In this document: piece after piece, positions 9,248-60,032 of the stretch
Layout of the letters: each line of letters begins with the position of its first letter
How positions within the stretch are numbered: the stretch's first letter is position 1
NCBI RefSeq assembly: GCF_056712565.1
Contig: NZ_CM160072.1
Reading direction: 5' to 3' (one strand)
DNA length: 64,000 nucleotides
Position numbers and translations under genes: made by a program
Notes under the pieces: model-generated
Told to the model about the DNA's origin: nothing
Databases searched by the model: none
The model's input: only the letters and a program-made list of their open reading frames with translations

Positions 9248-10441
9248 GTGTTTCAAAAAGTTGACGCCTACGCTGGCGACCCGATTCTTACGCTTATGGA
9301 GCGTTTTAAAGAAGACCCTCGCAGCGACAAAGTGAATTTAAGTATCGGTCTGTACTACAACGAAGACGGAATTATTCCACAACTGAAAGCCGTAGCGGAT
9401 GCGGAAGCGCGCCTGAATGCGCAGCCTCATGGTGCTTCGCTTTATTTACCGATGGAAGGGCTTAACAGCTATCGCCATGCCATTGCGCCGCTGCTGTTTG
9501 GTGCGGACCATCCGGTACTGCAACAACAGCGCGTAGCAACCATTCAAACCCTTGGCGGCTCAGGGGCATTGAAAGTGGGTGCAGATTTCCTGAAACGCTA
9601 CTTCCCGGAATCAGGCGTCTGGGTCAGCGATCCTACCTGGGAAAACCACGTAGCAATATTCGCCGGGGCTGGATTCGAAGTAAGTACTTACCCCTGGTAT
9701 GACGAAGCGACTAACGGCGTGCGCTTTAATGACCTGTTGGCGACGCTGAAAACATTACCTGCCCGCAGTATTGTGTTGCTGCATCCATGTTGCCACAACC
9801 CAACGGGTGCCGATCTCACTAATGACCAGTGGGATTCCGTGATTGAAATTCTCAAAGCCCGCGAGCTTATTCCATTCCTCGATATTGCCTATCAAGGATT
9901 TGGTGCCGGTATGGAAGAGGATGCCTACGCCATTCGCGCCATTGCCAGCGCTGGATTACCCGCTCTGGTGAGCAATTCGTTCTCGAAAATTTTCTCCCTT
10001 TACGGCGAGCGCGTCGGCGGACTTTCTGTTCTGTGTGAAGATGCCGAAGCCGCAGGCCGCGTACTGGGGCAATTGAAAGCAACCGTTCGCCGCAACTACT
10101 CCAGCCCGCCGAATTTTGGTGCGCAGGTGGTGGCTGCGGTGCTGAATGACGAGGCATTGAAAGCCAGCTGGCTGGCGGAAGTAGAAGAGATGCGTACTCG
10201 CATTCTGGCAATGCGTCAGGAACTGGTGAAGGTATTGAGCACAGAGATGCCAGAGCGCAATTTCGATTATCTGCTTAATCAGCGCGGCATGTTCAGTTAT
10301 ACCGGTTTAAGAACCGCTCAGGTTGACCGACTACGTGAAGAATTTGGTGTCTATCTCATCGCCAGCGGTCGCATGTGTGTCGCCGGGCTTAACGCGCAAA
10401 ATGTGCATCGCGTGGCAAAGGCGTTTGCTGCGGTGATGTGA
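9248..10441 (+). CDS. tyrB: aromatic amino acid aminotransferase TyrB
   Basis: 397 aa from GTG 9248 ([14 protein letters not shown]...), matching the K-12 length; PLP-lysine context [16 protein letters not shown]. Confidence 0.9.
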
Positions 10442-10473: not shown

Positions 10474-10571
10474 CCTGACTCCAGCCATCCCCTACTATTC
10501 TGTCCCTTTTTTCGCCCACTTTTACATCATCTCTTTTCTATAAGTTTTTGAAAATTAGTGTTTTTAACTGT

Positions 10572-10587
10572 TGGTACGGATTGTGCA
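10572..10587 (+). promoter_or_regulatory. candidate sigma-54 (-24/-12) promoter for the 2-oxoglutarate dehydrogenase operon
   Basis: TGGTACGGATTGTGCA: GG and GC separated by 10 nt, two mismatches to TGGCACG-N4-TTGC; 36 nt upstream of the E1 ATG; an NtrC-family activator gene is in the same island. Confidence 0.55.
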
Positions 10588-10622: not shown

Positions 10623-13367
10623 ATGGAGAACATGACCTCGCCCGGCACGCTGCTTAGTGGAGATAACGCGACCTGGCTTGAAGAGTACTACCAGACCTGG
10701 TTGCGTACGCCGGAACAACTCCCGGAAGACTGGCGGCGTTTTTTTCTTTCACCTGAACTGACTGTCCAAAGCGTATCCGGTGATAACAACGTCAGCGGTG
10801 CGACGTTAAAAAAACAGGCTGCGGTAATACAACTGATCAATGCCTGGCGCACGCAGGGGCATCTGCGCGCAAAGCTTGATCCACTTGGTTTGAATCCCCC
10901 AGCTGACGTTCCCTCCCTCCAGCCTGGTTTTTGGGGATTAAGCGAAGAAGACTTGTTGCAGGAGTTTAGCGTCACCTTTGGCGCACACACCACGCAAATG
11001 CCACTTAAGCAACTGCTTAACCTGCTGGAGCAAGCCTGGGCCGGTAGCCAGGCTTATGAACTTGCTCATCTGGAAAATCGTGAAGAAATCAACTGGTTGT
11101 TATCACGGATTGAGAGCAGCAATGCGCCACAAGCTGATGCCCAAACCTGCATTGCCCGTTTTGAAAAACTGATGGCGGCAGAGACGTTAGAGCGTTATCT
11201 GCATACCCGTTATGTTGGGCAGAAACGGTTTTCTCTGGAAGGGGGCGAAAGTGCAATCCCGGCGCTCGATACGCTGACAAAACGCCTGCGTGCGCAAGGT
11301 GTGGAGGAAATGGTCATTGGCATGGCGCACCGGGGAAGACTTAATGTTCTGGTTAATCTGTTGAATAAAGACCCGGCACAGCTTTTTGCTGAGTTTGAAG
11401 GCAAGCAGACGATCGGCAGTGGTTCAGGCGATGTGAAATACCACATGGGGTATTCCAGCAATCTGGAAACACCTGCCGGTTCGCTGCATGTGGCGCTGGC
11501 GTATAACCCCTCACATCTGGAGATCGTGAATCCGGTGGTGCTGGGCCAGGTGCGAGCCAGGCAGGAACGCCGTGGTGAGGATGGTCAGGCAAAAGTGGTG
11601 GGCGTACTTATTCATGGGGATTCCGCGTTGGGCGGCCTCGGCGTCAACCAAACCACGTTTAACTTATCGCAGACTCAGGGCTACGGCACTGGCGGTACGC
11701 TACATCTGGTGATTAACAATCAGATTGGCTTCACCACTTCCCGCTTGCAGGATATGCGTTCTTCACGGTACTGCACCGATATTGCCAAAATGGTAGCGGC
11801 CCCAATTATCCACGTTAATGGCGATGACGTTGACGCTGTTTGCCAGGTAATGGAACTGGCGTGCGAATGGCGAGACACCTTCCGGCGCGACATCATCATC
11901 GATATTTGCTGCTTCCGTAAGCACGGACACAACGAAAGCGATGAGCCACGTCTTACCCAGCCACAAATGTATCAGGCAGTGGATGCTCACCCTGGTACGC
12001 TCGCCCGTTATGGTGAATCTCTTGCCCGCCGCGGCCTGTTAACTCAGGCGCAACAAGATGAGATGACGGCACGCTATCGCGACTGGCTGGATAGCTGCCA
12101 GAAACGTGAACCGCAGCCTCTCAAACCTGCAATTCACTCTTTTAGCGCTAACTGGTATGGGTTGACCAACCCTCACTGGAGCGCCCCGGTATCTACGGCA
12201 TTGCCTCGGCAAAAGCTGGCAGCGTATGGTGAAATCATTTCTACACTGCCACCCGATGTGGTCGCACATCCTACCATTAAACGGCAACTGGCGTTACGCC
12301 AGGATATGGCCGCAGGTACTCAGCCAATAGACTGGGGAATGGCTGAAATGCTGGCCTATGCATCGCTTGTGGATGCGGGTGTTGGTGTGCGTCTTTCTGG
12401 TGAAGACTCAGGGCGTGGCACGTTCAGTCATCGCCATGCAGTGGTACATCATCAAACTGAAGCCCGTCGTTATCTGCCGTTACAGCATATCCGCGCTGGT
12501 CAGGCATCTTTCGATGTTTATGATTCGGTGCTTAATGAAGAAGCGCTCTTAGCCTTTGAATATGGCTATTCAACGTCTGCGCCTCAGCAACTGGTTATTT
12601 GGGAAGCGCAGTTTGGTGACTTTGCCAACGGCGCTCAGGTTGCTATTGACCAGTTTATCTCGTCTGGCGAAACCAAGTGGGATCGCTATAGCGGTTTAAC
12701 CATTCTTCTGCCGCATGGCTATGACGGACAAGGGCCGGAGCACTCTTCTGCGCGTCCTGAGCGCTGGCTGCAACTGTGCGCAGAAAACAACATGCAGGTG
12801 GTGATGCCCAGTGAGTCAGCACAAATGTTCCATTTGCTGCGCGGTCAGGCATTACGCCCAATGCGCAAACCGTTAGTGATAATGATGAGTAAGCGTTTAC
12901 TTCGGTTTAAAGGCGCTATGAGCGAGCTTTCTGAATTCACTGATGGCGCTTATAAACCGGTAGTCACCGATCCGCAATTGCATCAGTCCCAGAAAGTTAA
13001 GCGCGTTATTTTGTGTAGCGGCCAGGTCTATTACGACGTACTGGAAGCCCGTAAGCAGCGTGAGTGTGAAGATGAGGTAGCGATTGTTCGCCTGGAGCAA
13101 CTCTACCCGTTCCCGGTCGCAGAACTGAATGATGTTCTGGCGAGTTGGCCGAACTGCTGCGAATGGATTTGGTTGCAGGAAGAGCCAGAAAACCAGGGCG
13201 CGTGGCGGCAGATTCGTCATGAGCTGGCGGCACTGAAAATTAACACTCCTTACTGGCAGTATGCAGGCCGCCCGGCAGTGGCAGCTCCGGCGACAGGGTA
13301 TGGGCGTGTACATAAACAACAAATCGACGAATTTCTTGCTGCTGCGTTTGCAGATATTCAGCCATGA
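10623..13367 (+). CDS. 2-oxoglutarate dehydrogenase E1 component paralog (SucA-like)
   Basis: ORF-track ORF 10548-13367 (TTG) trimmed to ATG 10623 with AGGAGA SD; ThDP region HGDSALGGLGVNQTTFNLSQTQGYGTGGTLHLVINNQIGFTTS parallels SucA. Confidence 0.9.
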   Translation: MENMTSPGTLLSGDNATWLEEYYQTWLRTPEQLPEDWRRFFLSPELTVQSVSGDNNVSGATLKKQAAVIQLINAWRTQGHLRAKLDPLGLNPPADVPSLQPGFWGLSEEDLLQEFSVTFGAHTTQMPLKQLLNLLEQAWAGSQAYELAHLENREEINWLLSRIESSNAPQADAQTCIARFEKLMAAETLERYLHTRYVGQKRFSLEGGESAIPALDTLTKRLRAQGVEEMVIGMAHRGRLNVLVNLLNKDPAQLFAEFEGKQTIGSGSGDVKYHMGYSSNLETPAGSLHVALAYNPSHLEIVNPVVLGQVRARQERRGEDGQAKVVGVLIHGDSALGGLGVNQTTFNLSQTQGYGTGGTLHLVINNQIGFTTSRLQDMRSSRYCTDIAKMVAAPIIHVNGDDVDAVCQVMELACEWRDTFRRDIIIDICCFRKHGHNESDEPRLTQPQMYQAVDAHPGTLARYGESLARRGLLTQAQQDEMTARYRDWLDSCQKREPQPLKPAIHSFSANWYGLTNPHWSAPVSTALPRQKLAAYGEIISTLPPDVVAHPTIKRQLALRQDMAAGTQPIDWGMAEMLAYASLVDAGVGVRLSGEDSGRGTFSHRHAVVHHQTEARRYLPLQHIRAGQASFDVYDSVLNEEALLAFEYGYSTSAPQQLVIWEAQFGDFANGAQVAIDQFISSGETKWDRYSGLTILLPHGYDGQGPEHSSARPERWLQLCAENNMQVVMPSESAQMFHLLRGQALRPMRKPLVIMMSKRLLRFKGAMSELSEFTDGAYKPVVTDPQLHQSQKVKRVILCSGQVYYDVLEARKQRECEDEVAIVRLEQLYPFPVAELNDVLASWPNCCEWIWLQEEPENQGAWRQIRHELAALKINTPYWQYAGRPAVAAPATGYGRVHKQQIDEFLAAAFADIQP

Positions 13368-13399: not shown

Positions 13400-14554
13400 A
13401 TGATCGAAATTACTGTCCCTGTATTACCGGAATCTGTCACGGAAGGCACGCTGACAACCTGGTGTAAACAAGAAGGCGAGCACGTAAAACGCGATGATGT
13501 GATTGCCGAGCTGGAAACCGATAAAGTCATTCTGGAAATACCGGCCCCGCACGATGGCGTGTTAAGCAATATTATCGTCAGCGAAGGTAGCACGGTCACG
13601 TCCGCGCAACTGTTGGCGCATCTTAAGCCGCAAGCTGTCATAGAAGAAACCGTCACACCAGTCACCGAAACCCTGGCGATGCCTTCCGCACGGCTGGAGG
13701 CACAGCGTAGTGGTGTTGAACTTGCTGACGTTGCGGGGAGCGGGAGAAATGGACGTATCCTGAAAGAGGATGTACAGCGCGTTACTCCTGCACCAGTCAT
13801 TCAGCCTGAACGGGTGGCGGAGATCGCGCCAGCTAAACCCTTGACACCGGGTGCTCGTCAGGAACGTCGTGAGCCGATGTCGCGCTTACGTCAGCGAATT
13901 GCTGAGCGTCTGCTGGCTTCCCAACAAAATAACGCCATTCTTACCACATTCAACGAAGTAAACATGCAGAGCGTGATGGATTTACGCACCCGCTGGAAAG
14001 ATCGTTTTGCCGAGAAGCACGGCGTGAAGCTGGGCTTTATGTCCTTCTTTGTTAAGGCCGTTACCCGGGCGCTGGAGCGCTTCCCTGTAGTGAATGCCAG
14101 CGTTGATGGCAACGAGATTATCTGGCGTGATTATTGCGATATCGGCATTGCAGTGAGCAGCAACCGCGGCCTGGTAGTGCCTGTGTTACGCAATGCGCAA
14201 TCACTCTCTTTGGTGGAAATTGAACGGCAAATTGCCGAATACGCCACACAGGCACGCAATGGCAAATTGCCGCTGGAGGCGTTACAGGGCGGCACGTTCT
14301 CTATCACCAACGGCGGTACTTTTGGTTCGATGATGTCAACGCCAATCATTAACCCGCCGCAGTCGGCCATTCTTGGGATGCATGCCATCACGCCGCGCCC
14401 GGTCGCAGAAAACGGCCAGGTTGTTATTCGTCCCATGATGTACCTTGCTCTCAGCTATGACCATCGCATTATCGATGGTCAGGAAGCCGTGCAGACATTG
14501 GTGGCAATACGTGAGCTACTGGAATCACCGGAACAACTGTTGCTGGATCTTTAA
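13400..14554 (+). CDS. dihydrolipoyllysine-residue succinyltransferase E2 paralog (SucB-like)
   Basis: 384 aa; lipoyl-lysine motif [14 protein letters not shown]; catalytic [11 protein letters not shown]; AAGGAGA SD. Confidence 0.9.
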
Positions 14555-18102: not shown

Positions 18103-18215
18103 ATCTGTGTGGTAAGGGAATCATCTTTTAATAACTGTGCGGAAAACCGCGCATAAAATAAAAAGGATAAATAGCTAACTCATTAAATAACAAAGCGTTA
18201 TTAAAAAATTAAAGA

Positions 18216-18231
18216 TGGCATAGCTCCTGCA
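18216..18231 (+). promoter_or_regulatory. candidate sigma-54 (-24/-12) promoter for the transporter / Ldh_2 operon
   Basis: TGGCATAGCTCCTGCA: GG-N10-GC, close to consensus; about 40 nt upstream of ATG 18272. Confidence 0.6.
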
Positions 18232-18271
18232 ATAGCCAGGCAGGTTTTTTATTTTTCACAATGAGGTGAAT

Positions 18272-19771
18272 ATGTCATCAATATCCCATGGCGCACCACA
18301 AAAGCGTCGAATTATCCCTAATCCCGGCCTGTGGTTGGCGATCATTGCCGGAATTATTATTACCCTTCTGCCACTGGGCGATACCTTGCCCGTCGCCGGA
18401 CAAAATATGATCGCCATTCTGGTGTTTGCCATTATTGTCTGGATCAGCGAAGCGATGGATTACACCGCCAGTGCAATTGTTATTTCCGCACTGATTATCT
18501 TTATGGTTGGTTTTGCCCCGGATATGAATCACCCGGACACGATCCTTGGCACCGCGAAAGCGCTGAAAATGACTCTGTCGGGTTTTTCTAATTCTGCTCT
18601 GGCGCTGGTGGCAGCAGCAATGTTTATCGCGGCGGCAATGACCATTACCGGGCTGGATAAACGCATTGCGCTGTTTACTATGTCGAAAATAGGTGCCAGC
18701 AGCCGCAGCATTATTATCGGTGCCATTGTGGTGACCATCGTCCTGAGCCTGGTTGTACCCAGTGCCACTGCCCGTACGGCTTGCGTGGTGCCGATTATGA
18801 TGGGGGTCATTGCGGCATTTAAGGTGGATAAACATTCACGTTTAGCGGCGTCAATGATGATTGTTATCGCCCAGGCGACCAGTATCTGGAACGTTGGTAT
18901 TCAAACTTCGGCGGCGCAAAACCTGCTTTCTATCGGTTTTATCAATAAAACTTTCGGCGCCGGGCATTCTGTCAGCTGGCTTGACTGGCTGTTAGCGGGC
19001 GCGCCCTGGAGCCTCACCATGTCGGTGATCCTCTATTTCCTCGCACGTAAATTGTTGCCGCCAGAAACGGAAGCTGTTGAAGGGGGGAGCGAGGCCATTA
19101 AAAAAGCACTCGCAGAGTTAGGGCCAACCACCGGTAAAGAAAAACGCTTGATCGGTATTTCGCTATTGTTACTGCTCTTTTGGTCTACTGGCGGAAAATT
19201 ACACAGTATTGATACCACCTCTGTCACCCTTGCCGGACTGGCGATTATGTTGCTGCCAGGCATCGGTGTAATGAGCTGGAAAGAGGTCGAAAAACGTGTG
19301 CAGTGGGGCACGTTGCTGATGTTTGGTATTGGTATCAGCCTGGGGTCCACGCTGCTTGATACGCAGGCAGCTTCATGGATGGCGAACTATGTGGTGAAAG
19401 GTTTTGGTCTTGATGGCTTGCCATCATTAGCCATCTTCGCGATTCTCGCCGCTTTCTTGATAATTATTCACCTGGGGTTTGCCAGTGCCACTGCGCTAAC
19501 TGCCGCATTGCTGCCCATCCTGATTAGCCTGTTAAGCAGTCTGCCGCCAGAACTCGGCGTTAACCCGGTCGGCATGACCATTCTGCTCGCCTTCAGTGTC
19601 AGTTTTGGCTTCATCCTGCCGATTAACGCGCCACAAAATATGGTGTGTATGGGTACGGATACCTTCACGCCACGCCAGTTTACCCGTGTGGGACTGTACC
19701 TGACGGTAATCGGCTACCTGTTGTTGCTACTGTTTGCCGCCACCTGGTGGAAAATTTTAGGTCTAATGTGA
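18272..19771 (+). CDS. anion permease (DASS/CitT-like ion-transporter superfamily), probable 2-oxoglutarate/dicarboxylate uptake
   Basis: ORF-track ORF 18266-19771 (GTG) trimmed to ATG 18272; polytopic hydrophobic 499-aa protein; island context. Confidence 0.75.
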   Translation: MSSISHGAPQKRRIIPNPGLWLAIIAGIIITLLPLGDTLPVAGQNMIAILVFAIIVWISEAMDYTASAIVISALIIFMVGFAPDMNHPDTILGTAKALKMTLSGFSNSALALVAAAMFIAAAMTITGLDKRIALFTMSKIGASSRSIIIGAIVVTIVLSLVVPSATARTACVVPIMMGVIAAFKVDKHSRLAASMMIVIAQATSIWNVGIQTSAAQNLLSIGFINKTFGAGHSVSWLDWLLAGAPWSLTMSVILYFLARKLLPPETEAVEGGSEAIKKALAELGPTTGKEKRLIGISLLLLLFWSTGGKLHSIDTTSVTLAGLAIMLLPGIGVMSWKEVEKRVQWGTLLMFGIGISLGSTLLDTQAASWMANYVVKGFGLDGLPSLAIFAILAAFLIIIHLGFASATALTAALLPILISLLSSLPPELGVNPVGMTILLAFSVSFGFILPINAPQNMVCMGTDTFTPRQFTRVGLYLTVIGYLLLLLFAATWWKILGLM

Positions 19772-19782
19772 GGAAACCAACG

Positions 19783-20856
19783 ATGTCATTACAAATTGCT
19801 GTTGAAAAAGTGCGTTGGTTAGCTGCCGGGCTGCTGGAACTTAATGGCTGTGATGCCGATATCGCTCAGGATGTGGCGGAACATATGATTGAAGCGGAAC
19901 GTTATGGCTTTGCCAGCCACGGCGTCACGCTGCTACCGAAATATCTGGAAAATATCGCTCGTGGCGATGTAACCGCGAATGCCCGCCCGGAATGCTTAAC
20001 AAGTGAAGGTAATTTACAACGTTTTCATGCCCACAATGGCTTTGGTCAACACGCCGGAAAAGTGGCGGTAAATGCTGCCATCGAACAAGCAAAACACCGC
20101 GGTTTTTGCCTGTTAACGTTGTGCCATGCGCATCATTTAGGGCGTATGGGGCATTACGGGCAAATGGTTGCTGATCAAGGCCTGGCGATGCTGGCCATGA
20201 GTAACGTCACCGGGCGTCCGGCACTGGTCGCCCCGTGGGGCGGTGCGGAACCGCGTATGACCACTAACCCTTTCTGCTTTGCCTGGCCGTTCAGTGATGG
20301 GCGTCCGCCGATTCTGGTTGATTTTGCCACCAGTAGCATGGCGCTAAATAAAGCACGGGTAATGTCGTCCACCGGGAAGCAGGCCGCGCCGGGACAATTG
20401 ATCGATGCACAGGGGAATCCAAGCAATGATCCTGGGGTGTTATTCAGCAATCCTCCAGGGGCGTTACTGCCATTTGGTGAGCATAAAGGATTTGGCCTGG
20501 CACTGATGATTGAAATGATGGCGGGGATCTTATCTGGTGGTGACACGATCGCCGAAGATCATCAGACGGATGGATCTGCGCATAATCATCTTTTTGCGTT
20601 GATTATCGATCCTGATCAATTCACCGATCTGGCAGGGGAGAAAGGGCAGTTCTTTGCGGATTATCTGTTAGCTACGCAGCCTCAACCTGGCGGCAATCCG
20701 GTGATTTACCCCGGTATGCCAGAAGCTGCCAACCGGGAACGCAATGCGAAGATGATTACGATCCCGGTATCATTCTGGTCCTGGATAGTTGAACATTACG
20801 CCCGCAAAGGTATCGATTTGGGGTTACATCCTCAGGAATCAGCATTAGCTGGATGA
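19783..20856 (+). CDS. Ldh_2-family (malate/L-lactate dehydrogenase 2 type) 2-hydroxyacid/2-oxoacid oxidoreductase
   Basis: ORF-track ORF 19645-20856 trimmed to ATG 19783 (GAGGAAA SD; the upstream extension would overlap the transporter gene); 357 aa. Confidence 0.7.
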   Translation: MSLQIAVEKVRWLAAGLLELNGCDADIAQDVAEHMIEAERYGFASHGVTLLPKYLENIARGDVTANARPECLTSEGNLQRFHAHNGFGQHAGKVAVNAAIEQAKHRGFCLLTLCHAHHLGRMGHYGQMVADQGLAMLAMSNVTGRPALVAPWGGAEPRMTTNPFCFAWPFSDGRPPILVDFATSSMALNKARVMSSTGKQAAPGQLIDAQGNPSNDPGVLFSNPPGALLPFGEHKGFGLALMIEMMAGILSGGDTIAEDHQTDGSAHNHLFALIIDPDQFTDLAGEKGQFFADYLLATQPQPGGNPVIYPGMPEAANRERNAKMITIPVSFWSWIVEHYARKGIDLGLHPQESALAG

Positions 20857-22203
20857 TTCTGGTCGATAAACTTGCGGTTGAATCTGATGTTTGTTGAGTT
20901 TGTCATATAAAGTCTTGCGCGGCAGCTGTAATAGCCGCGCTGTCAAACTGACTTGGCCTTCCGTTTGTCGCAGCATATCTTCGATTAACTTTTTCTCGAA
21001 AGCATCAATGCAGGCGGTAAGGCCACTCTCTTCTTGCTGAGTCATTGGCACTGGCTGGTGGTGGGTCAGTAAACCGAGAACAAAACGCTCTGCATTGTGT
21101 TTAAGTTCACGTACATTGCCAGGCCAACTTTGTGATTGCAACCAGGCCAGTAACATGGGAGAAATATCAGGCAGAGGACGATTATATTTTTGTGCCGCCT
21201 GACTGGCGAACCAGTAAAACAGTTCAGGGATATCTTCTCGTCGCTGGCGTAGAGGTGGAATATTCAAGCTAACCACATTCAGACGATAATAGAGATCGAG
21301 ACGAAACAGATGTTCTTCGCTGCGACGCAGTAAATCTTCCTTGGTCGCTGCAATAACACGGCAATTCACCGGAATTAATTGATTGGCACCTAATCGTTCA
21401 ATGGTTCTTTCCTGCAATACACGTAGCAGTTTTACCTGCATTCCTGATGGCATTCCCTCTATTTCATCGAGAAATAACGTACCACCATTTGCATGTTCAA
21501 TTTTTCCAATACGCTTTTTAACCGCACCGGTAAATGCGCCCGCCTCATGACCAAATATTTCGCTTTCAAACAACGTTTCTGGTAAGCCTGCACAGTTTAA
21601 GGCAACAAACTGCCCCTGACGGCGGGTACTCCAGTGATGCAGCATTCTGGCGACGACTTCTTTACCACAACCTGTTTCACCATAAATAAGGACATCGGCA
21701 CCGGTATCTGCGACATTAAGGATCATTTTACGCAGTTGTTGCATCTGCGGACTACGACCAATCAGCACCGGGCCATTTTCCTGTTGCAGATTCGCCAGTA
21801 ATTGCTGATTTTCTAAAACCAATCGCCGTTTTTCTACCGCTCTGGCAATAATACTCAATAATTTATCTGAGCTACTTGGTTTCTCAATGAAATCGAATGC
21901 ACCATTACGCATGGCATCCACCGCCATTTCCACGTCACCGTGTCCGGTAATTAAAATAACCGGAATTTTGCTATCCATTTCGTTGATGTAACTGAGGAGC
22001 TCTAGTCCTGATATTCCAGGTAACCTGACATCGGTCAGTATAATAATGTTGGCTTGACTTTGAATAAGGGGAATACTGTGTTCTGCATCGCAACAGGAAA
22101 TAACACGATAACCAGCCAGCGTGAGCGTTTGTTCACAGGCAAAACGTACATCGTCACTATCCTCAATATAAACTATAGTAATTTCACTGGATTTATTATT
22201 CAT
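20845..22203 (-). CDS. kguR: sigma-54-dependent response regulator (NtrC family); matches KguR of the alpha-ketoglutarate utilization island
   Basis: 452 aa; receiver domain (IILTDVRLPG); AAA+ Walker A GETGCGKE; GAFTGA motif; C-terminal HTH. Gene name recalled from the UPEC literature, not verified here. Confidence 0.85.
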   Translation of the reverse strand: MNNKSSEITIVYIEDSDDVRFACEQTLTLAGYRVISCCDAEHSIPLIQSQANIIILTDVRLPGISGLELLSYINEMDSKIPVILITGHGDVEMAVDAMRNGAFDFIEKPSSSDKLLSIIARAVEKRRLVLENQQLLANLQQENGPVLIGRSPQMQQLRKMILNVADTGADVLIYGETGCGKEVVARMLHHWSTRRQGQFVALNCAGLPETLFESEIFGHEAGAFTGAVKKRIGKIEHANGGTLFLDEIEGMPSGMQVKLLRVLQERTIERLGANQLIPVNCRVIAATKEDLLRRSEEHLFRLDLYYRLNVVSLNIPPLRQRREDIPELFYWFASQAAQKYNRPLPDISPMLLAWLQSQSWPGNVRELKHNAERFVLGLLTHHQPVPMTQQEESGLTACIDAFEKKLIEDMLRQTEGQVSLTARLLQLPRKTLYDKLNKHQIQPQVYRPESSS

Positions 22204-24016
22204 GTTCTTCTCCCCATTCAGGCCAGGTTAATGTCATTACTGCGCCGCCTTCAGGATGATTACTGGCGTGGAGTGCGCCGTTCGAATTTCGGACAATTTC
22301 GCTGACTATTGCCAGTCCCAACCCCATTCCTCTACGTTTAGTGGTAAAAAATGGTTCAAATATGCGATCGACAACTTCAGGTGCAAAACCGCCACCGCTG
22401 TCTTTAATGGTAATAATAACTTTGTTATTTGCCTGGCGAATGGCGATATCCAGTCGTTTGTAAGAGCTACCTTCCATAGAATCTAAGGCGTTGCTAATTA
22501 AATTACTGAATATCTGTTCAAGACCGAGCTCATCGCAATTGACAAATAACGGCATGGATGGGGCTTTTATTCGTCGCTCAATGTTATTTTTCTCCATGCT
22601 GTGATTAAGTAACGCCACGGCGCTATACATCACTTTGATGACATCGGCAGAACCTTTAGGTACGCGATGGCGCGAGGCAAATGCTTTAAGTTCGGAAATG
22701 AGCTGCGTCATCCGCTCAATCACTGAAATAATGTGTTTCAGATTCTGTTCAACCTGCGGATACATCTCTTTTTTTAGCATAGTACGCGCGTTATCAGTAA
22801 GTGCGTGAATGGCGGCTAACGGTTGATTTTGTTCATGGGCAATTTCGGTTGCCATCTGTCCAAGCGCCGCCAGTTTGCTGGACTCTGCCAGTTCACTACG
22901 CGTAATTTGTAATACTTGTTCAGCCTGACTGCGCTCTTTTATCTCCTGTATTAATTTTTGATTGATCAATTCCAGGGCAGATGTACGCTCTTTAACCTGT
23001 TTTTCTAATGTTTCATTCGCCAGTGTTAATAATTGTTGTGCATGAGATCGCATTCTCCAGTATTTAATAAATAACAAAAACAGCAGGTAAATAATTAGTG
23101 TAATGACTAACGAAATAGCCCATGACCAGTACAGGTTATCTAAGGGGACCATAATTGTCATTTTCCAGTTAAATTCTGGAATGGCTATTTGTTGCGTATA
23201 ATATTGCGGGAATAAACAGAGTTGTTCTTTTTTATCTTTCAGGAAAGTAAAATTGCTCACGGTATAACAGGGATAATAATCCGCCGGTAAAAGATTGTCG
23301 AGACTATATTGACGGGTAGATTGTAGTTTTTGTTTTGCCTGAACAGGTAACGGTTGCAGTGTTCGCATTCGCCATGGCGATTTTGAACTTAAAAATATAA
23401 TCCCATGTTCATCATTCACGATAATATTTTCAGGACCTTCGGCCCATGCTTTTTCAATTTCATTAAGACTTATTTTTACTACTACAACACCGACAATTTT
23501 TCCTTTATCTTTTATACTTGTAGAGAGGAAGAATCCCGGTGTATTTGTAGTGCTACCAATACCGTAAAAGCGTCCATTTAAGCCAGACATGGCGTGTTTA
23601 TAATAGGGGCGATAGCTATAATTTTGCCCTACATAGCTGCCGGGGTCCTGCCAGTTGCTAGAAGCGATGGCCTTACCTTGGGTATCCAGAATAAATATTG
23701 CTGCGGTTTTGAGTTGAGTATTGAAATGTGCAATTCGTTGATTGAGTTCGCTGGACGTCATATCGTCAGGCGTAATTACCGCCTGACGGATGATATGGTC
23801 TGTTGAGAGCATATAGGGTAAAACATAAAATTGCTCGATGGTGGAATATAATGTGGACTTATACATTTCAAGCCGCATTTTATCGGTACCGGACAAGGTA
23901 TTAAAACGCAAGTGCAAAAAAGCGATTGAAACCGCGAGCATGATAAGAAAAAGTGAAATGCTTGTAATGTGAAATCGCCATTTGTTCTTAAATATATAAT
24001 TCCACGATATTTTCAT
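22196..24016 (-). CDS. kguS: sensor histidine kinase (DctB-like, periplasmic sensing domain); matches KguS
   Basis: 606 aa; two TM segments flanking a roughly 270-aa periplasmic domain; H-box ATEIAHEQNQPLAAI; ATPase G-box DSGGGF; stop overlaps the kguR start by 8 nt. Confidence 0.85.
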   Translation of the reverse strand: MKISWNYIFKNKWRFHITSISLFLIMLAVSIAFLHLRFNTLSGTDKMRLEMYKSTLYSTIEQFYVLPYMLSTDHIIRQAVITPDDMTSSELNQRIAHFNTQLKTAAIFILDTQGKAIASSNWQDPGSYVGQNYSYRPYYKHAMSGLNGRFYGIGSTTNTPGFFLSTSIKDKGKIVGVVVVKISLNEIEKAWAEGPENIIVNDEHGIIFLSSKSPWRMRTLQPLPVQAKQKLQSTRQYSLDNLLPADYYPCYTVSNFTFLKDKKEQLCLFPQYYTQQIAIPEFNWKMTIMVPLDNLYWSWAISLVITLIIYLLFLLFIKYWRMRSHAQQLLTLANETLEKQVKERTSALELINQKLIQEIKERSQAEQVLQITRSELAESSKLAALGQMATEIAHEQNQPLAAIHALTDNARTMLKKEMYPQVEQNLKHIISVIERMTQLISELKAFASRHRVPKGSADVIKVMYSAVALLNHSMEKNNIERRIKAPSMPLFVNCDELGLEQIFSNLISNALDSMEGSSYKRLDIAIRQANNKVIITIKDSGGGFAPEVVDRIFEPFFTTKRRGMGLGLAIVSEIVRNSNGALHASNHPEGGAVMTLTWPEWGEEHE

Positions 24017-24196
24017 TCATCATCCATTGAATGCATTTATATTTATCATCAGTATATTCCCTGAACAATGTTTGCGAGAACCAAAAGAGTGCCATTGTGT
24101 GAATGTGTAAGCAGAATAACCGTGGCAATGTGTGGTTTATCGCACAGGTATTCCAAATGTGATCATGCTCTTTTTATGTGACAAATCCGCAGATAA

Positions 24197-57313: not shown

Positions 57314-57601
57314 ATGCTTCCCAATCCCTGAAATTACTTTGAGGTTATTAATATGCTATCAGACGGGGTTTCGCTGCATTAATCGCGCCAGAATATCCCG
57401 TTAATAGAACGAGTTAAACGGTCGATGATTTCTCACCTTACCGAAATTTTGTTTATCAAATGTAAAGTATTATTACGTTAGGCCGCGATGAGAATTGAGT
57501 AAAGATAATTCTCATTTGCAATCGTGACTGGAATAGAAGAACAACCGAGAAGACGTCGCTAATAACCAGGATGGGCTGGTTTGACTGCGCAGGTATGTAT
57601 A

Positions 57602-57635
57602 AAAAAATCCGGAAACAGAGAGTCGTTTCCGGATT
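57602..57635 (-). terminator. rho-independent terminator of fdhF
   Basis: ATCCGGAAAC-(8 nt)-GTTTCCGGAT with a 7-A run on the plus strand (U-tract on the minus-strand transcript), 53 nt after the fdhF stop. Confidence 0.7.
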
Positions 57636-57687: not shown

Positions 57688-59835
57688 TTACGCCAGTGCC
57701 GCTTCGCGCAGGCGAGTTTTCAACTTGTTGTACTCGTCAATCACGTACTGCTCGGCGGCGCGCTGATCGGCGATCGGCTCGACGCGCACGGCGCAGTATT
57801 TGTATTCCGGCGTTTTCGTAATCGGGCTTAAGTTTTCGGTCACCAGCTCGTTACAGGCACCAATCCACCACTGGTAGGTCATGTAAATCGCCCCTTTGTT
57901 CGGACGATCGCTGACCTGCGCACGGGTGATAATTTTGCCTTTACGCGAGTGCACCCAAACCAATGCCTCATCTTCAATACCCAGACGTTTGGCGTCTTCG
58001 GTATTGATTTGTGCGTAGCCAGGTTCATCAGCCAGCGCCGCCAGTGCCGCACAGTTACCGGTCATCGAACGGCAAGAGTAGTGACCAACTTCACGCACCG
58101 TTGACAGTACCATCGGGTACTCGTCGGTGAGTTTGTCGATTGGCGCTACCCAGTCGCAGGTGAAGAACTGCGCCAGACCGTTCGGGGTATCAAACTTCTC
58201 TTTAAACAGATAAGAAGTCCCCTGATCGGCATCTGAAGTATCGCGGCAAGGCCACTGAATGAAGCCCAGTTCGCCCATTTTCTCGTAAGTCGCACCGTAG
58301 AAATCCGGGCACAGATGACGCAACTCGTCCCAGATCTCCTGGGTGTTGTTGTAGTGCATCGGATAACCCATACGAGTGGCAATTTCACTGATGATTTGCC
58401 AGTCCGTTTTCAGATCCCACTTCGGCTCAACCGCCTTGAAGAAACGCTGGAAGCCACGGTCAGCCGCAGTAAACACGCCTTCATGCTCGCCCCACGACGT
58501 TGACGGTAAAATGACATCCGCCGCCGACGCGGTTTTGGTCATAAAGATGTCCTGAACGATAACCAGTTCCAGATCTTCAAAGGCTTTACGTACTGCCGAC
58601 AGTTCCGCGTCAGTTTGCAGCGGATCTTCGCCCATAATGTACGCCGCTCTCACTTCACCATGCGCCACGCGGTGCGGCAGCTCGCTGATACGATAACCGG
58701 TATGAGCAGGCAGGCTTTCCACGCCCCAGGCTTTGGCAAATTTCTCGCGGTTAGCCGGATCTTTCACGTACTGATAGCCCGGATACGTATCCGGCAGCGC
58801 GCCCATATCGCAGGCACCCTGCACGTTGTTCTGACCACGAACCGGGTTTACACCCGCATGTGGCTTACCGAGGTTACCGGTCAGCATCGCGAGGCTGGTC
58901 AGAGAACGCACGGTTTCCACGCCCTGATAGAACTGGGTTACCCCCATGCCCCACAGGATGGCGGCGCTTTCCGCCTGGGCATACATCCGCGCCGCCTGAC
59001 GAATCTCACTGGCGCTGACGCCGGTGATATCTTCAACCGACTCCGGCGTGTAGCCTTCAACGATTTTACGATACTCTTCAAAGCCTTCTGTACGGGAAGC
59101 GACGAACGCTTTGTCGTACAGATTTTCTTCAATAATGACATGGCCCATCGCATTCAACAGCGCGATGTTCGAGCCGTTTTTCAATGCAATGTGCATGTCA
59201 GCAATGCGCGCGGTTTCAATTTTACGCGGATCGCAGACGATAATTTTCGCCCCGTTACGTTTAGCGTTAATTACGTGATTCGCCACGATTGGGTGGGAAT
59301 CCGCCGGGTTATACCCGAAAACGAACACTAAATCGGTATTATCAATTTCGTTAATAGCATTGCTCATTGCGCCATTACCGACCGATTGGTGCAGACCTGC
59401 AACCGATGGGCCGTGTCAGACACGAGCGCAGCAGTCAACGTTATTGGTACCAATAACGGCGCGCGCAAATTTTTGCATTACATAGTTGGTTTCGTTACCC
59501 GTACCGCGCGAGGAGCCGGTCGTCTGGATGGCATCCGGACCGTACTTCTCTTTGATGGCGCTCAGGCGCTCGGCAACGTAATTCAGTGCCTCATCCCAGG
59601 AAACAGGTTCGAGTTTGCCGCCACGCTGGCGACGGATCATGGGGGTTTTCAGGCGCGGGGTCAGGATCTGGGTATCGTTAATGAAGTCCCAGCCATAATA
59701 ACCCTTCAGACACAGGGTACCCTGGTTGGTTTTCCCCTGCGCTGCCTCCGCCCGGACGATTTTGCCGTTATCGACGACCAGGTTGATTTTGCAACCTGAT
59801 GCGCAATAGGGGCAAACCGTGACGACTTTTTTCAT
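57688..59835 (-). CDS. fdhF: formate dehydrogenase H (selenocysteine- and molybdopterin-containing), with in-frame UGA Sec codon at 59416-59418
   Basis: ORF-track ORFs 59416-59835 (139 aa, ...VDCCARV) and 57688-59367 are in the same frame, separated only by TGA; joined product is 715 aa reading ...CARV-U-HGPSV...; N-terminal 4Fe-4S motif CPYCASGC. Confidence 0.95.
59375..59418 (-). other. UGA(Sec140) codon and immediately downstream SECIS region of fdhF mRNA
   Basis: Position of the in-frame TGA read directly; SECIS extent (about 40 nt 3' of the UGA) is placed from knowledge of fdhF, not folded here. Confidence 0.7.
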
Positions 59836-59886
59836 CGGTCTCGCTCCAGTTAATCAAATCACGCATACGCGCTCTCGACTACAGTA

Positions 59887-59902
59887 TGCATCTTTTATGC
59901 CA
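59887..59902 (-). promoter_or_regulatory. sigma-54 promoter of fdhF (FhlA-dependent)
   Basis: Minus strand reads TGGCATAAAAGATGCA (GG-N10-GC), about 50 nt upstream of the fdhF ATG. Confidence 0.8.
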
Positions 59903-60001
59903 CATTTTATTTGGGGTCATTCCCTGATATTACGGGCACTATTTATTCAAAACTCTGACGAAAAACAGGCTGTCGTCAGTTTTGACGTGACGAAACGAAA
60001 T

Positions 60002-60025
60002 ACCGCGTGACAGCCATCACGCGGT
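60002..60025. terminator. stem-loop downstream of mdtP
   Basis: ACCGCGTGA-CAGCCA-TCACGCGGT, 9-bp stem, 8 nt after the mdtP stop. Confidence 0.45.
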
Positions 60026-60032
60026 AGACATT

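Follow-up and report, generated by a model that had tools for sequence, protein, structure and literature searches.

The minus-strand sequence TGGCATAAAAGATGCA, which occurs only once (59887-59902) in the window, that is, in the whole 64-kb stretch of DNA analysed here, is almost certainly the canonical sigma-54 (RpoN) promoter of fdhF, activated by FhlA from an upstream UAS. The fdhF gene encodes the selenoprotein formate dehydrogenase H, part of the formate hydrogenlyase complex, and its promoter is among the founding examples of sigma-54 promoters outside nitrogen control. It is a textbook case and was already known, and carries little weight as a discovery. The features of the fdhF region are as follows.

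60001-60026, minus strand: terminator-like hairpin after mdtP (TACCGCGTGA...TCACGCGGTA), an 11-bp stem and then a T-rich tail (inverted repeat I2).
59955-59993, minus strand: UAS, the presumed FhlA enhancer, TCGTCACGTCAAAACTGACGACAGCCTGTTTTTCGTCAG, at about -117 to -79 from the start site, with TCGTCA/TGACGA hexamers.
59923-59935, minus strand: block CCGTAATATCAGG between the UAS and the -24 element, at about -59 to -47, from the alignment across genera.
59887-59903, minus strand: sigma-54 core promoter of fdhF, the 17-mer GTGGCATAAAAGATGCA, identical to K-12 and to ChIP-seq peak OS41 (PMC4591121).
59876, minus strand: predicted transcription start site of fdhF with a 41-nt leader, placed by geometry 12 nt 3' of the C in the -12 GC (motif centre + 19).
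57688-59835, minus strand: fdhF coding sequence, 715 codons, from the translation and the RefSeq annotation of 100%-identical genomes.
57599-57635, minus strand: intrinsic terminator of fdhF, a 12-bp stem and a T-run.

From the sequence, it can be seen that the 16-mer is intergenic and lies in sense orientation 52 nt 5' of the fdhF ATG at 59835. The -24 GG (59901-59900) and the -12 GC (59889-59888) of the minus strand show the canonical spacing, with the two dinucleotides exactly 10 bp apart, and when compared with TGGCAC-N5-TTGCW the site has two mismatches, both at non-critical positions. The start site has been put 19 bp downstream of the sigma-54 motif centre (PMC4591121), and our predicted start at 59876, with its 41-nt leader, reproduces the 'distance 41' given for fdhF in Table 1 of that study. 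The inverted repeat 59856-59868/59884-59896 was also considered as a hairpin of the leader RNA and rejected, because its upstream arm lies in the promoter, 5' of the predicted start site.

A comparison with K-12 MG1655 revealed only two differences in the 197-bp mdtP-fdhF intergenic region. The first is an A for the K-12 G directly after the mdtP stop codon, and the second is an A for the K-12 C, 10 nt 5' of the -24 TGGC; the -24 GG, the -12 GC, the core, the UAS and the leader are all identical. Since both SNPs miss the GG, the GC and the UAS, this comparison, which the sequence-only reading of the window had proposed as a check, found both dinucleotides unchanged and fails to refute the promoter. 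That reading had placed a minus-strand sigma-54 promoter of fdhF at 59887-59902 and called it the classical one, and it holds on both counts: the exact 16-mer is there with GG and GC in place and fdhF downstream, the core is that of K-12, and fdhF carries its in-frame selenocysteine TGA at codon 140 (59416-59418). The 17-mer coincides with the K-12 sigma-54 ChIP-seq peak OS41 upstream of fdhF (FAT 41, EcoCyc 'confirmed', distance 41; PMC4591121), and the portion of the K-12 chromosome common to this window has no high-stringency sigma-54 site other than OS41.

The fdhF promoter region is present in 5419 of the 5426 complete E. coli genomes at an identity of at least 95%, and even in the most divergent copy (95.3% identity) every SNP falls outside the core and the UAS. 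Genomes with a 100% identical region (RefSeq) include those of ATCC 11775, Nissle 1917 and NU14, among others; the window is therefore a segment of a B2-phylogroup (B2/UPEC-type) E. coli chromosome.

We have also checked the conservation of the promoter outside E. coli, using 120 fdhF-like loci from other species that were retrieved by means of a degenerate nucleotide pattern for the conserved N-terminal part of the coding sequence, 118 of them with enough upstream sequence. The pattern TGGCAY-N6-TGCA was found upstream in 97 of these 118 loci, mostly 35-71 nt from the ATG, as against about 0.004 expected per region. Among the 118, the loci without it include those of Pasteurellaceae, Budvicia, Pragia and a Burkholderiaceae metagenome-assembled genome, together with second Raoultella paralogues. 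The 28 distinct variants from the 97 loci agree at all nine specified core positions and differ from one another at the six spacer positions. When 13 genera are aligned, two conserved islands, the -24/-12 core and the UAS block, stand out from otherwise unalignable sequence; the block CCGTAATATCAGG (59923-59935) is moderately conserved across genera and is possibly a site of DNA bending or an IHF-like site.

For occupancy by sigma-54 and dependence on FhlA, RpoN and formate, we rely on publications that deal with identical or orthologous sequences. At the orthologous Salmonella site, TGGCATAAAACATGCA, ChIP-chip detects sigma-54 binding, and Salmonella fdhF shows a 29-fold induction that depends on sigma-54 (PMC3844500). 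In Proteus mirabilis, the activity of the fdhF promoter goes down in fhlA and rpoN mutants and up with formate (PMC7658346). FhlA binding and formate- and fhlA-dependent expression have been established for K-12 fdhF, as cited in PMC4987338 and PMC6540204.

The UAS block, TCG(T/A)CACGTCAAAnnTGACGA...TTTTCGTCAG (59993-59955), is nearly invariant across the 13 genera, with flanks that cannot be aligned, and is unchanged in all E. coli copies examined. Its hexamers, TCGTCA and TGACGA, are in inverted orientation (inverted repeats I3, I4 and I7). At about 100 bp upstream of the start site, the block has the position that would be expected of an enhancer for a sigma-54 activator. Birkmann and Bock in 1989 and Schlensog et al. 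in 1994 reportedly centred the fdhF UAS near -110, in agreement with the conserved block. Two published descriptions of FhlA sites were also compared with this region. The 16-mer FhlA consensus CATTTCGTACGAAATG (cited in PMC4987338) has no match within six mismatches in the fdhF upstream region and, being unusable here for this reason, was dropped as a means to define the UAS. The best local match of the 14-nt FhlA PWM (PMC7658346) does fall in the UAS, at 59974-59987, but at 8.1 bits it is within background, as the window has 200 matches of 7 bits or more; the PWM holds too little information to tell anything of FhlA boxes at the kgu or ABC promoters of the window. Because neither motif gives a discriminating match, the block was assigned to FhlA on the literature and on its position, from which we infer that FhlA contacts the conserved hexamer block specifically.

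The hairpin after mdtP (60001-60026) directly abuts the UAS and the 5' edge of the fdhF upstream region, and probably insulates fdhF from mdtNOP read-through. With this hairpin on one side and the strong terminator after fdhF on the other, fdhF forms a self-contained unit. An ATTTCGT element, similar to a half-site for FhlA, overlaps the T-rich tail of the mdtP terminator.

The following mechanism is proposed for the fdhF unit. The sigma-54 RNA polymerase would bind the -24 GG and -12 GC (59901-59888, minus strand) as a closed complex that is unable to open alone. FhlA, encoded elsewhere on the chromosome with the hyp operon and activated by formate, would bind the UAS at 59955-59993, some 80-117 bp 5' of the start site, and contact the polymerase by DNA looping, and ATP hydrolysis would then open the promoter. 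Transcription would start near 59876 and end at the terminator at about 57600-57635.

Besides mdtNOP and fdhF, the gene content of the window includes nrf, acs, soxRS, uvrA, tyrB, dnaB and the kgu island, which sits between tyrB and aphA and has sigma-54-type promoters of its own. The island features needed here are the following.

10571-10587, plus strand: sigma-54-type motif TTGGTACGGATTGTGCA upstream of c5032, a 2-oxoglutarate dehydrogenase E1 paralogue, with a KguR box at 10374-10398.
18215-18231, plus strand: sigma-54 promoter ATGGCATAGCTCCTGCA of c5038, the gene for a DASS alpha-ketoglutarate transporter, with a KguR box at 18136-18155.
20845-22203, minus strand: kguR, an NtrC-family sigma-54-dependent response regulator (RefSeq annotation).
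22196-24016, minus strand: kguS, in the kgu island.

The c5032 operon starts at 10623 and the c5038 operon at 18272, and each has its sigma-54-type motif 35-40 nt 5' of the ATG and its KguR box further upstream. Pc5038 is dependent on both RpoN and KguR by experiment, with its start site at the 'A' at -30 (PMC5318444); this published start corresponds to position 18242 of the window, again the motif centre + 19. For Pc5032, KguR binding and KguR dependence have been published (PMC3694859), and its RpoN dependence is inferred. The NCBIfam matches of KguR (NtrC, AtoC and ZraR) all lie below the equivalog cutoffs. The claim that the window holds three RpoN-dependent units can thus be upheld with fdhF, c5038 and, presumably, c5032, and so can the claim that they are served by at least two activators, KguR here and FhlA elsewhere, since kguR is in the window and fhlA is absent from it. 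Three may nevertheless be an undercount, because of a previously unlisted sigma-54 candidate at 57375-57391.

KguR autoregulates the kguS promoter (PMC8716947). Upstream of kguS we noted a sigma-54-like -24 element, TGGCACTCTTTTGGTT (24079-24094, minus strand), without a -12 GC. It lies only about 35 nt 3' of the KguR box at 24129-24146, unlike the normal geometry of an enhancer and its promoter.

With two activators in play, it has been asked whether KguR, encoded about 38 kb away, might cross-activate PfdhF, or FhlA the kgu promoters, thereby coupling formate and alpha-ketoglutarate metabolism under anaerobic conditions. The two systems share the holoenzyme and are both expressed under anaerobiosis (PMC5318444), and such cross-activation is mechanistically possible, since the overexpressed AAA+ domain of a heterologous bEBP, lacking a DNA-binding domain, drives Salmonella fdhF 29-fold from solution; this activation is, however, about 10-fold weaker than that by the cognate activator (PMC3844500). 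The window contains only three KguR-type inverted repeats (TGTGYG-N6-15-CGCRCA), at 10374, 18136 and 24129, in the upstream regions of c5032, c5038 and kguS, and none is within 35 kb of fdhF. The published genome-wide list of KguR sites in CFT073 comprises the same three sites, with none at fdhF. Conversely, nothing else in the window matches the UAS core CACGTCAAANNTGACGA with fewer than two mismatches, and the kgu promoters have no close copy of it nearby.

Expression data point in the same direction. RNA-seq of a delta-kguR mutant gave 620 differentially expressed genes, with the kgu island genes down by up to about 10 log2 units (Supplementary Table 3, PMC8716947). Neither fdhF (C_RS24035) nor any other gene from C_RS24000 to C_RS24059 is in this table, although the medium (glycerol, TMAO and alpha-ketoglutarate) was not chosen to induce fdhF (PMC8716947). 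The existing data thus already argue against cross-talk between KguR and fdhF: the question is answered in the negative, with no KguR box near fdhF and fdhF not among the 620 genes in a medium not chosen to induce it. There is no positive evidence for the coupling and some against it, so that it is disfavoured and, in our estimate, very unlikely.

The motif scan proposed in the sequence-only reading gave a less simple answer. We have used a sigma-54 PSSM derived from 41 intergenic-sense E. coli ChIP-seq sites (Bonocora et al. 2015, PMC4591121), with fdhF itself left out. The scan does find the fdhF site, but at 14.8 bits it ranks only sixth in the window, within chance, and would rank 32nd among the 41 training sites. 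Under a first-order Markov model, 1.5 sites of this score are expected per 64 kb (both strands), and under an i.i.d. model 0.6; several of the PSSM matches that score above fdhF fall inside genes. The motif score alone is therefore not significant in a 64-kb window, and the case for the fdhF promoter rests on position, homology and conservation. Position changes the expectation considerably, because only about 0.03 sites of this score are expected 20-150 nt upstream, in sense, of the approximately 54 gene starts of the window. At a threshold of at least 12.97 bits, four motifs are in promoter-like positions (those of fdhF, c5038, c5032 and an ABC operon), compared with about 0.1 expected. The fdhF site can serve as a calibration in this respect: in 64 kb, the sigma-54 motif score alone fails to tell real promoters and background apart, whereas position together with conservation succeeds.

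That the fdhF site matches by chance, or binds sigma-54 without ever firing, with fdhF transcribed from another promoter, would fit the score within the 64-kb chance range and the many non-productive sigma-54 ChIP sites of E. coli (PMC4591121), but it can be practically discarded in view of the deep conservation of position and sequence around a freely varying spacer, the mark of experimental confirmation on the identical K-12 promoter (PMC4591121), the RpoN and FhlA dependence in Proteus (PMC7658346), the sigma-54-dependent induction in Salmonella (PMC3844500) and the lack of any sigma-70-like promoter on the fdhF strand of the mdtP-fdhF intergenic region.

While the fdhF site is accounted for by the FhlA-activated sigma-54 promoter, the sole loose end with discovery value is a sigma-54-like site before an accessory ABC operon. 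The best-scoring sigma-54 motif in the window, at 17.8 bits, is CTGGCGCGATTAATGCA (57375-57391, minus strand), which the sequence-only reading did not list. It lies 61 nt 5' of the start codon of a five-gene operon for an ABC transporter of the peptide/nickel family (about 52.0-57.3 kb), located between fdhF and yjcO and absent from K-12. Of 5426 E. coli genomes, 1043 (about 19%) carry the operon, with fdhF annotated beside it in all the matches listed, and its proteins reach no NCBIfam equivalog cutoff. By chance, the window should contain only about 0.003 sites as good as CTGGCGCGATTAATGCA in a promoter-like position. In addition, a perfect palindrome, ATGAGAATT-N10-AATTCTCAT (57488-57515), is found about 113 bp upstream of it, at an enhancer distance, and in a divergent E. 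coli copy the CTGGCGCGATTAATGCA core is intact with SNPs on both sides.

The comparison with other species gave no such picture. No orthologues of the ABC substrate-binding protein were present in the 120 fdhF-like loci, and orthologous operons were then found by protein search; upstream of six of these (in Kluyvera, Buttiauxella, Mangrovibacter, Serratia, Yersinia and Proteus) there was no sigma-54 motif, the best score being 2.3 bits. No activator gene adjoins the ABC operon, and the operon showed no response in the delta-kguR expression data (PMC8716947). We regard it as a tentative and rather doubtful possibility that the ABC operon is a fourth RpoN unit, driven by CTGGCGCGATTAATGCA with the palindrome as the enhancer for an activator encoded elsewhere.

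Two other properties of this operon were noted. In E. coli SaT040 (NZ_CP014495.1 4655762-4657330), the gene for the ABC substrate-binding protein is annotated as a pseudogene with an internal stop, which suggests that the operon is decaying in some lineages. The chromosomal surroundings of the five-gene cassette also change with every genus examined; in Kluyvera, for example, it lies between ycjF and tyrB, and in Serratia and Yersinia beside argF/pyrBI, the Serratia locus having only the binding-protein gene. The behaviour of the cassette is like that of a unit that is mobile or has been relocated repeatedly.

CTGGCGTGATTATTGCG (14122-14138, plus strand) has the second-highest sigma-54 score of the window, 16.9 bits. 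It is located within the odhB-like gene of the kgu island, in sense orientation, about 430 nt 5' of the lpdA-like gene. Bonocora et al. describe intragenic sigma-54 sites, and this motif could be one of them in kind.

Among known systems, PfdhF of K-12 is the closest, sharing the 17-mer core, the 41-nt leader, the UAS and the flanking genes mdtP and fdhF; the differences are the two intergenic SNPs and the five-gene ABC transporter operon that this strain, unlike K-12, has downstream of fdhF. The other promoters of the FhlA regulon (hycA, hypA, hydN and hyfA) have the same -24/-12 architecture, an upstream enhancer and the same formate-responsive FhlA (PMC4591121 Table 1; PMC4987338). They differ in their core, which is TGGCAC...TTGCT as compared with TGGCAT...ATGCA in fdhF, and the fdhF UAS departs from CATTTCGTACGAAATG, the 16-mer consensus cited for FhlA sites. 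The UPEC promoters Pc5038 and Pc5032 are, like PfdhF, of the sigma-54 type, are anaerobically induced, have their enhancer upstream and lie in the same window. In their case, however, the activator is the KguS/KguR two-component system, which senses alpha-ketoglutarate, the enhancer is TGTGYG-N-CGCRCA, and both are, unlike PfdhF, accessory-genome elements absent from K-12. Taken together, this B2/UPEC-type segment carries three sigma-54 units that answer to two activators.
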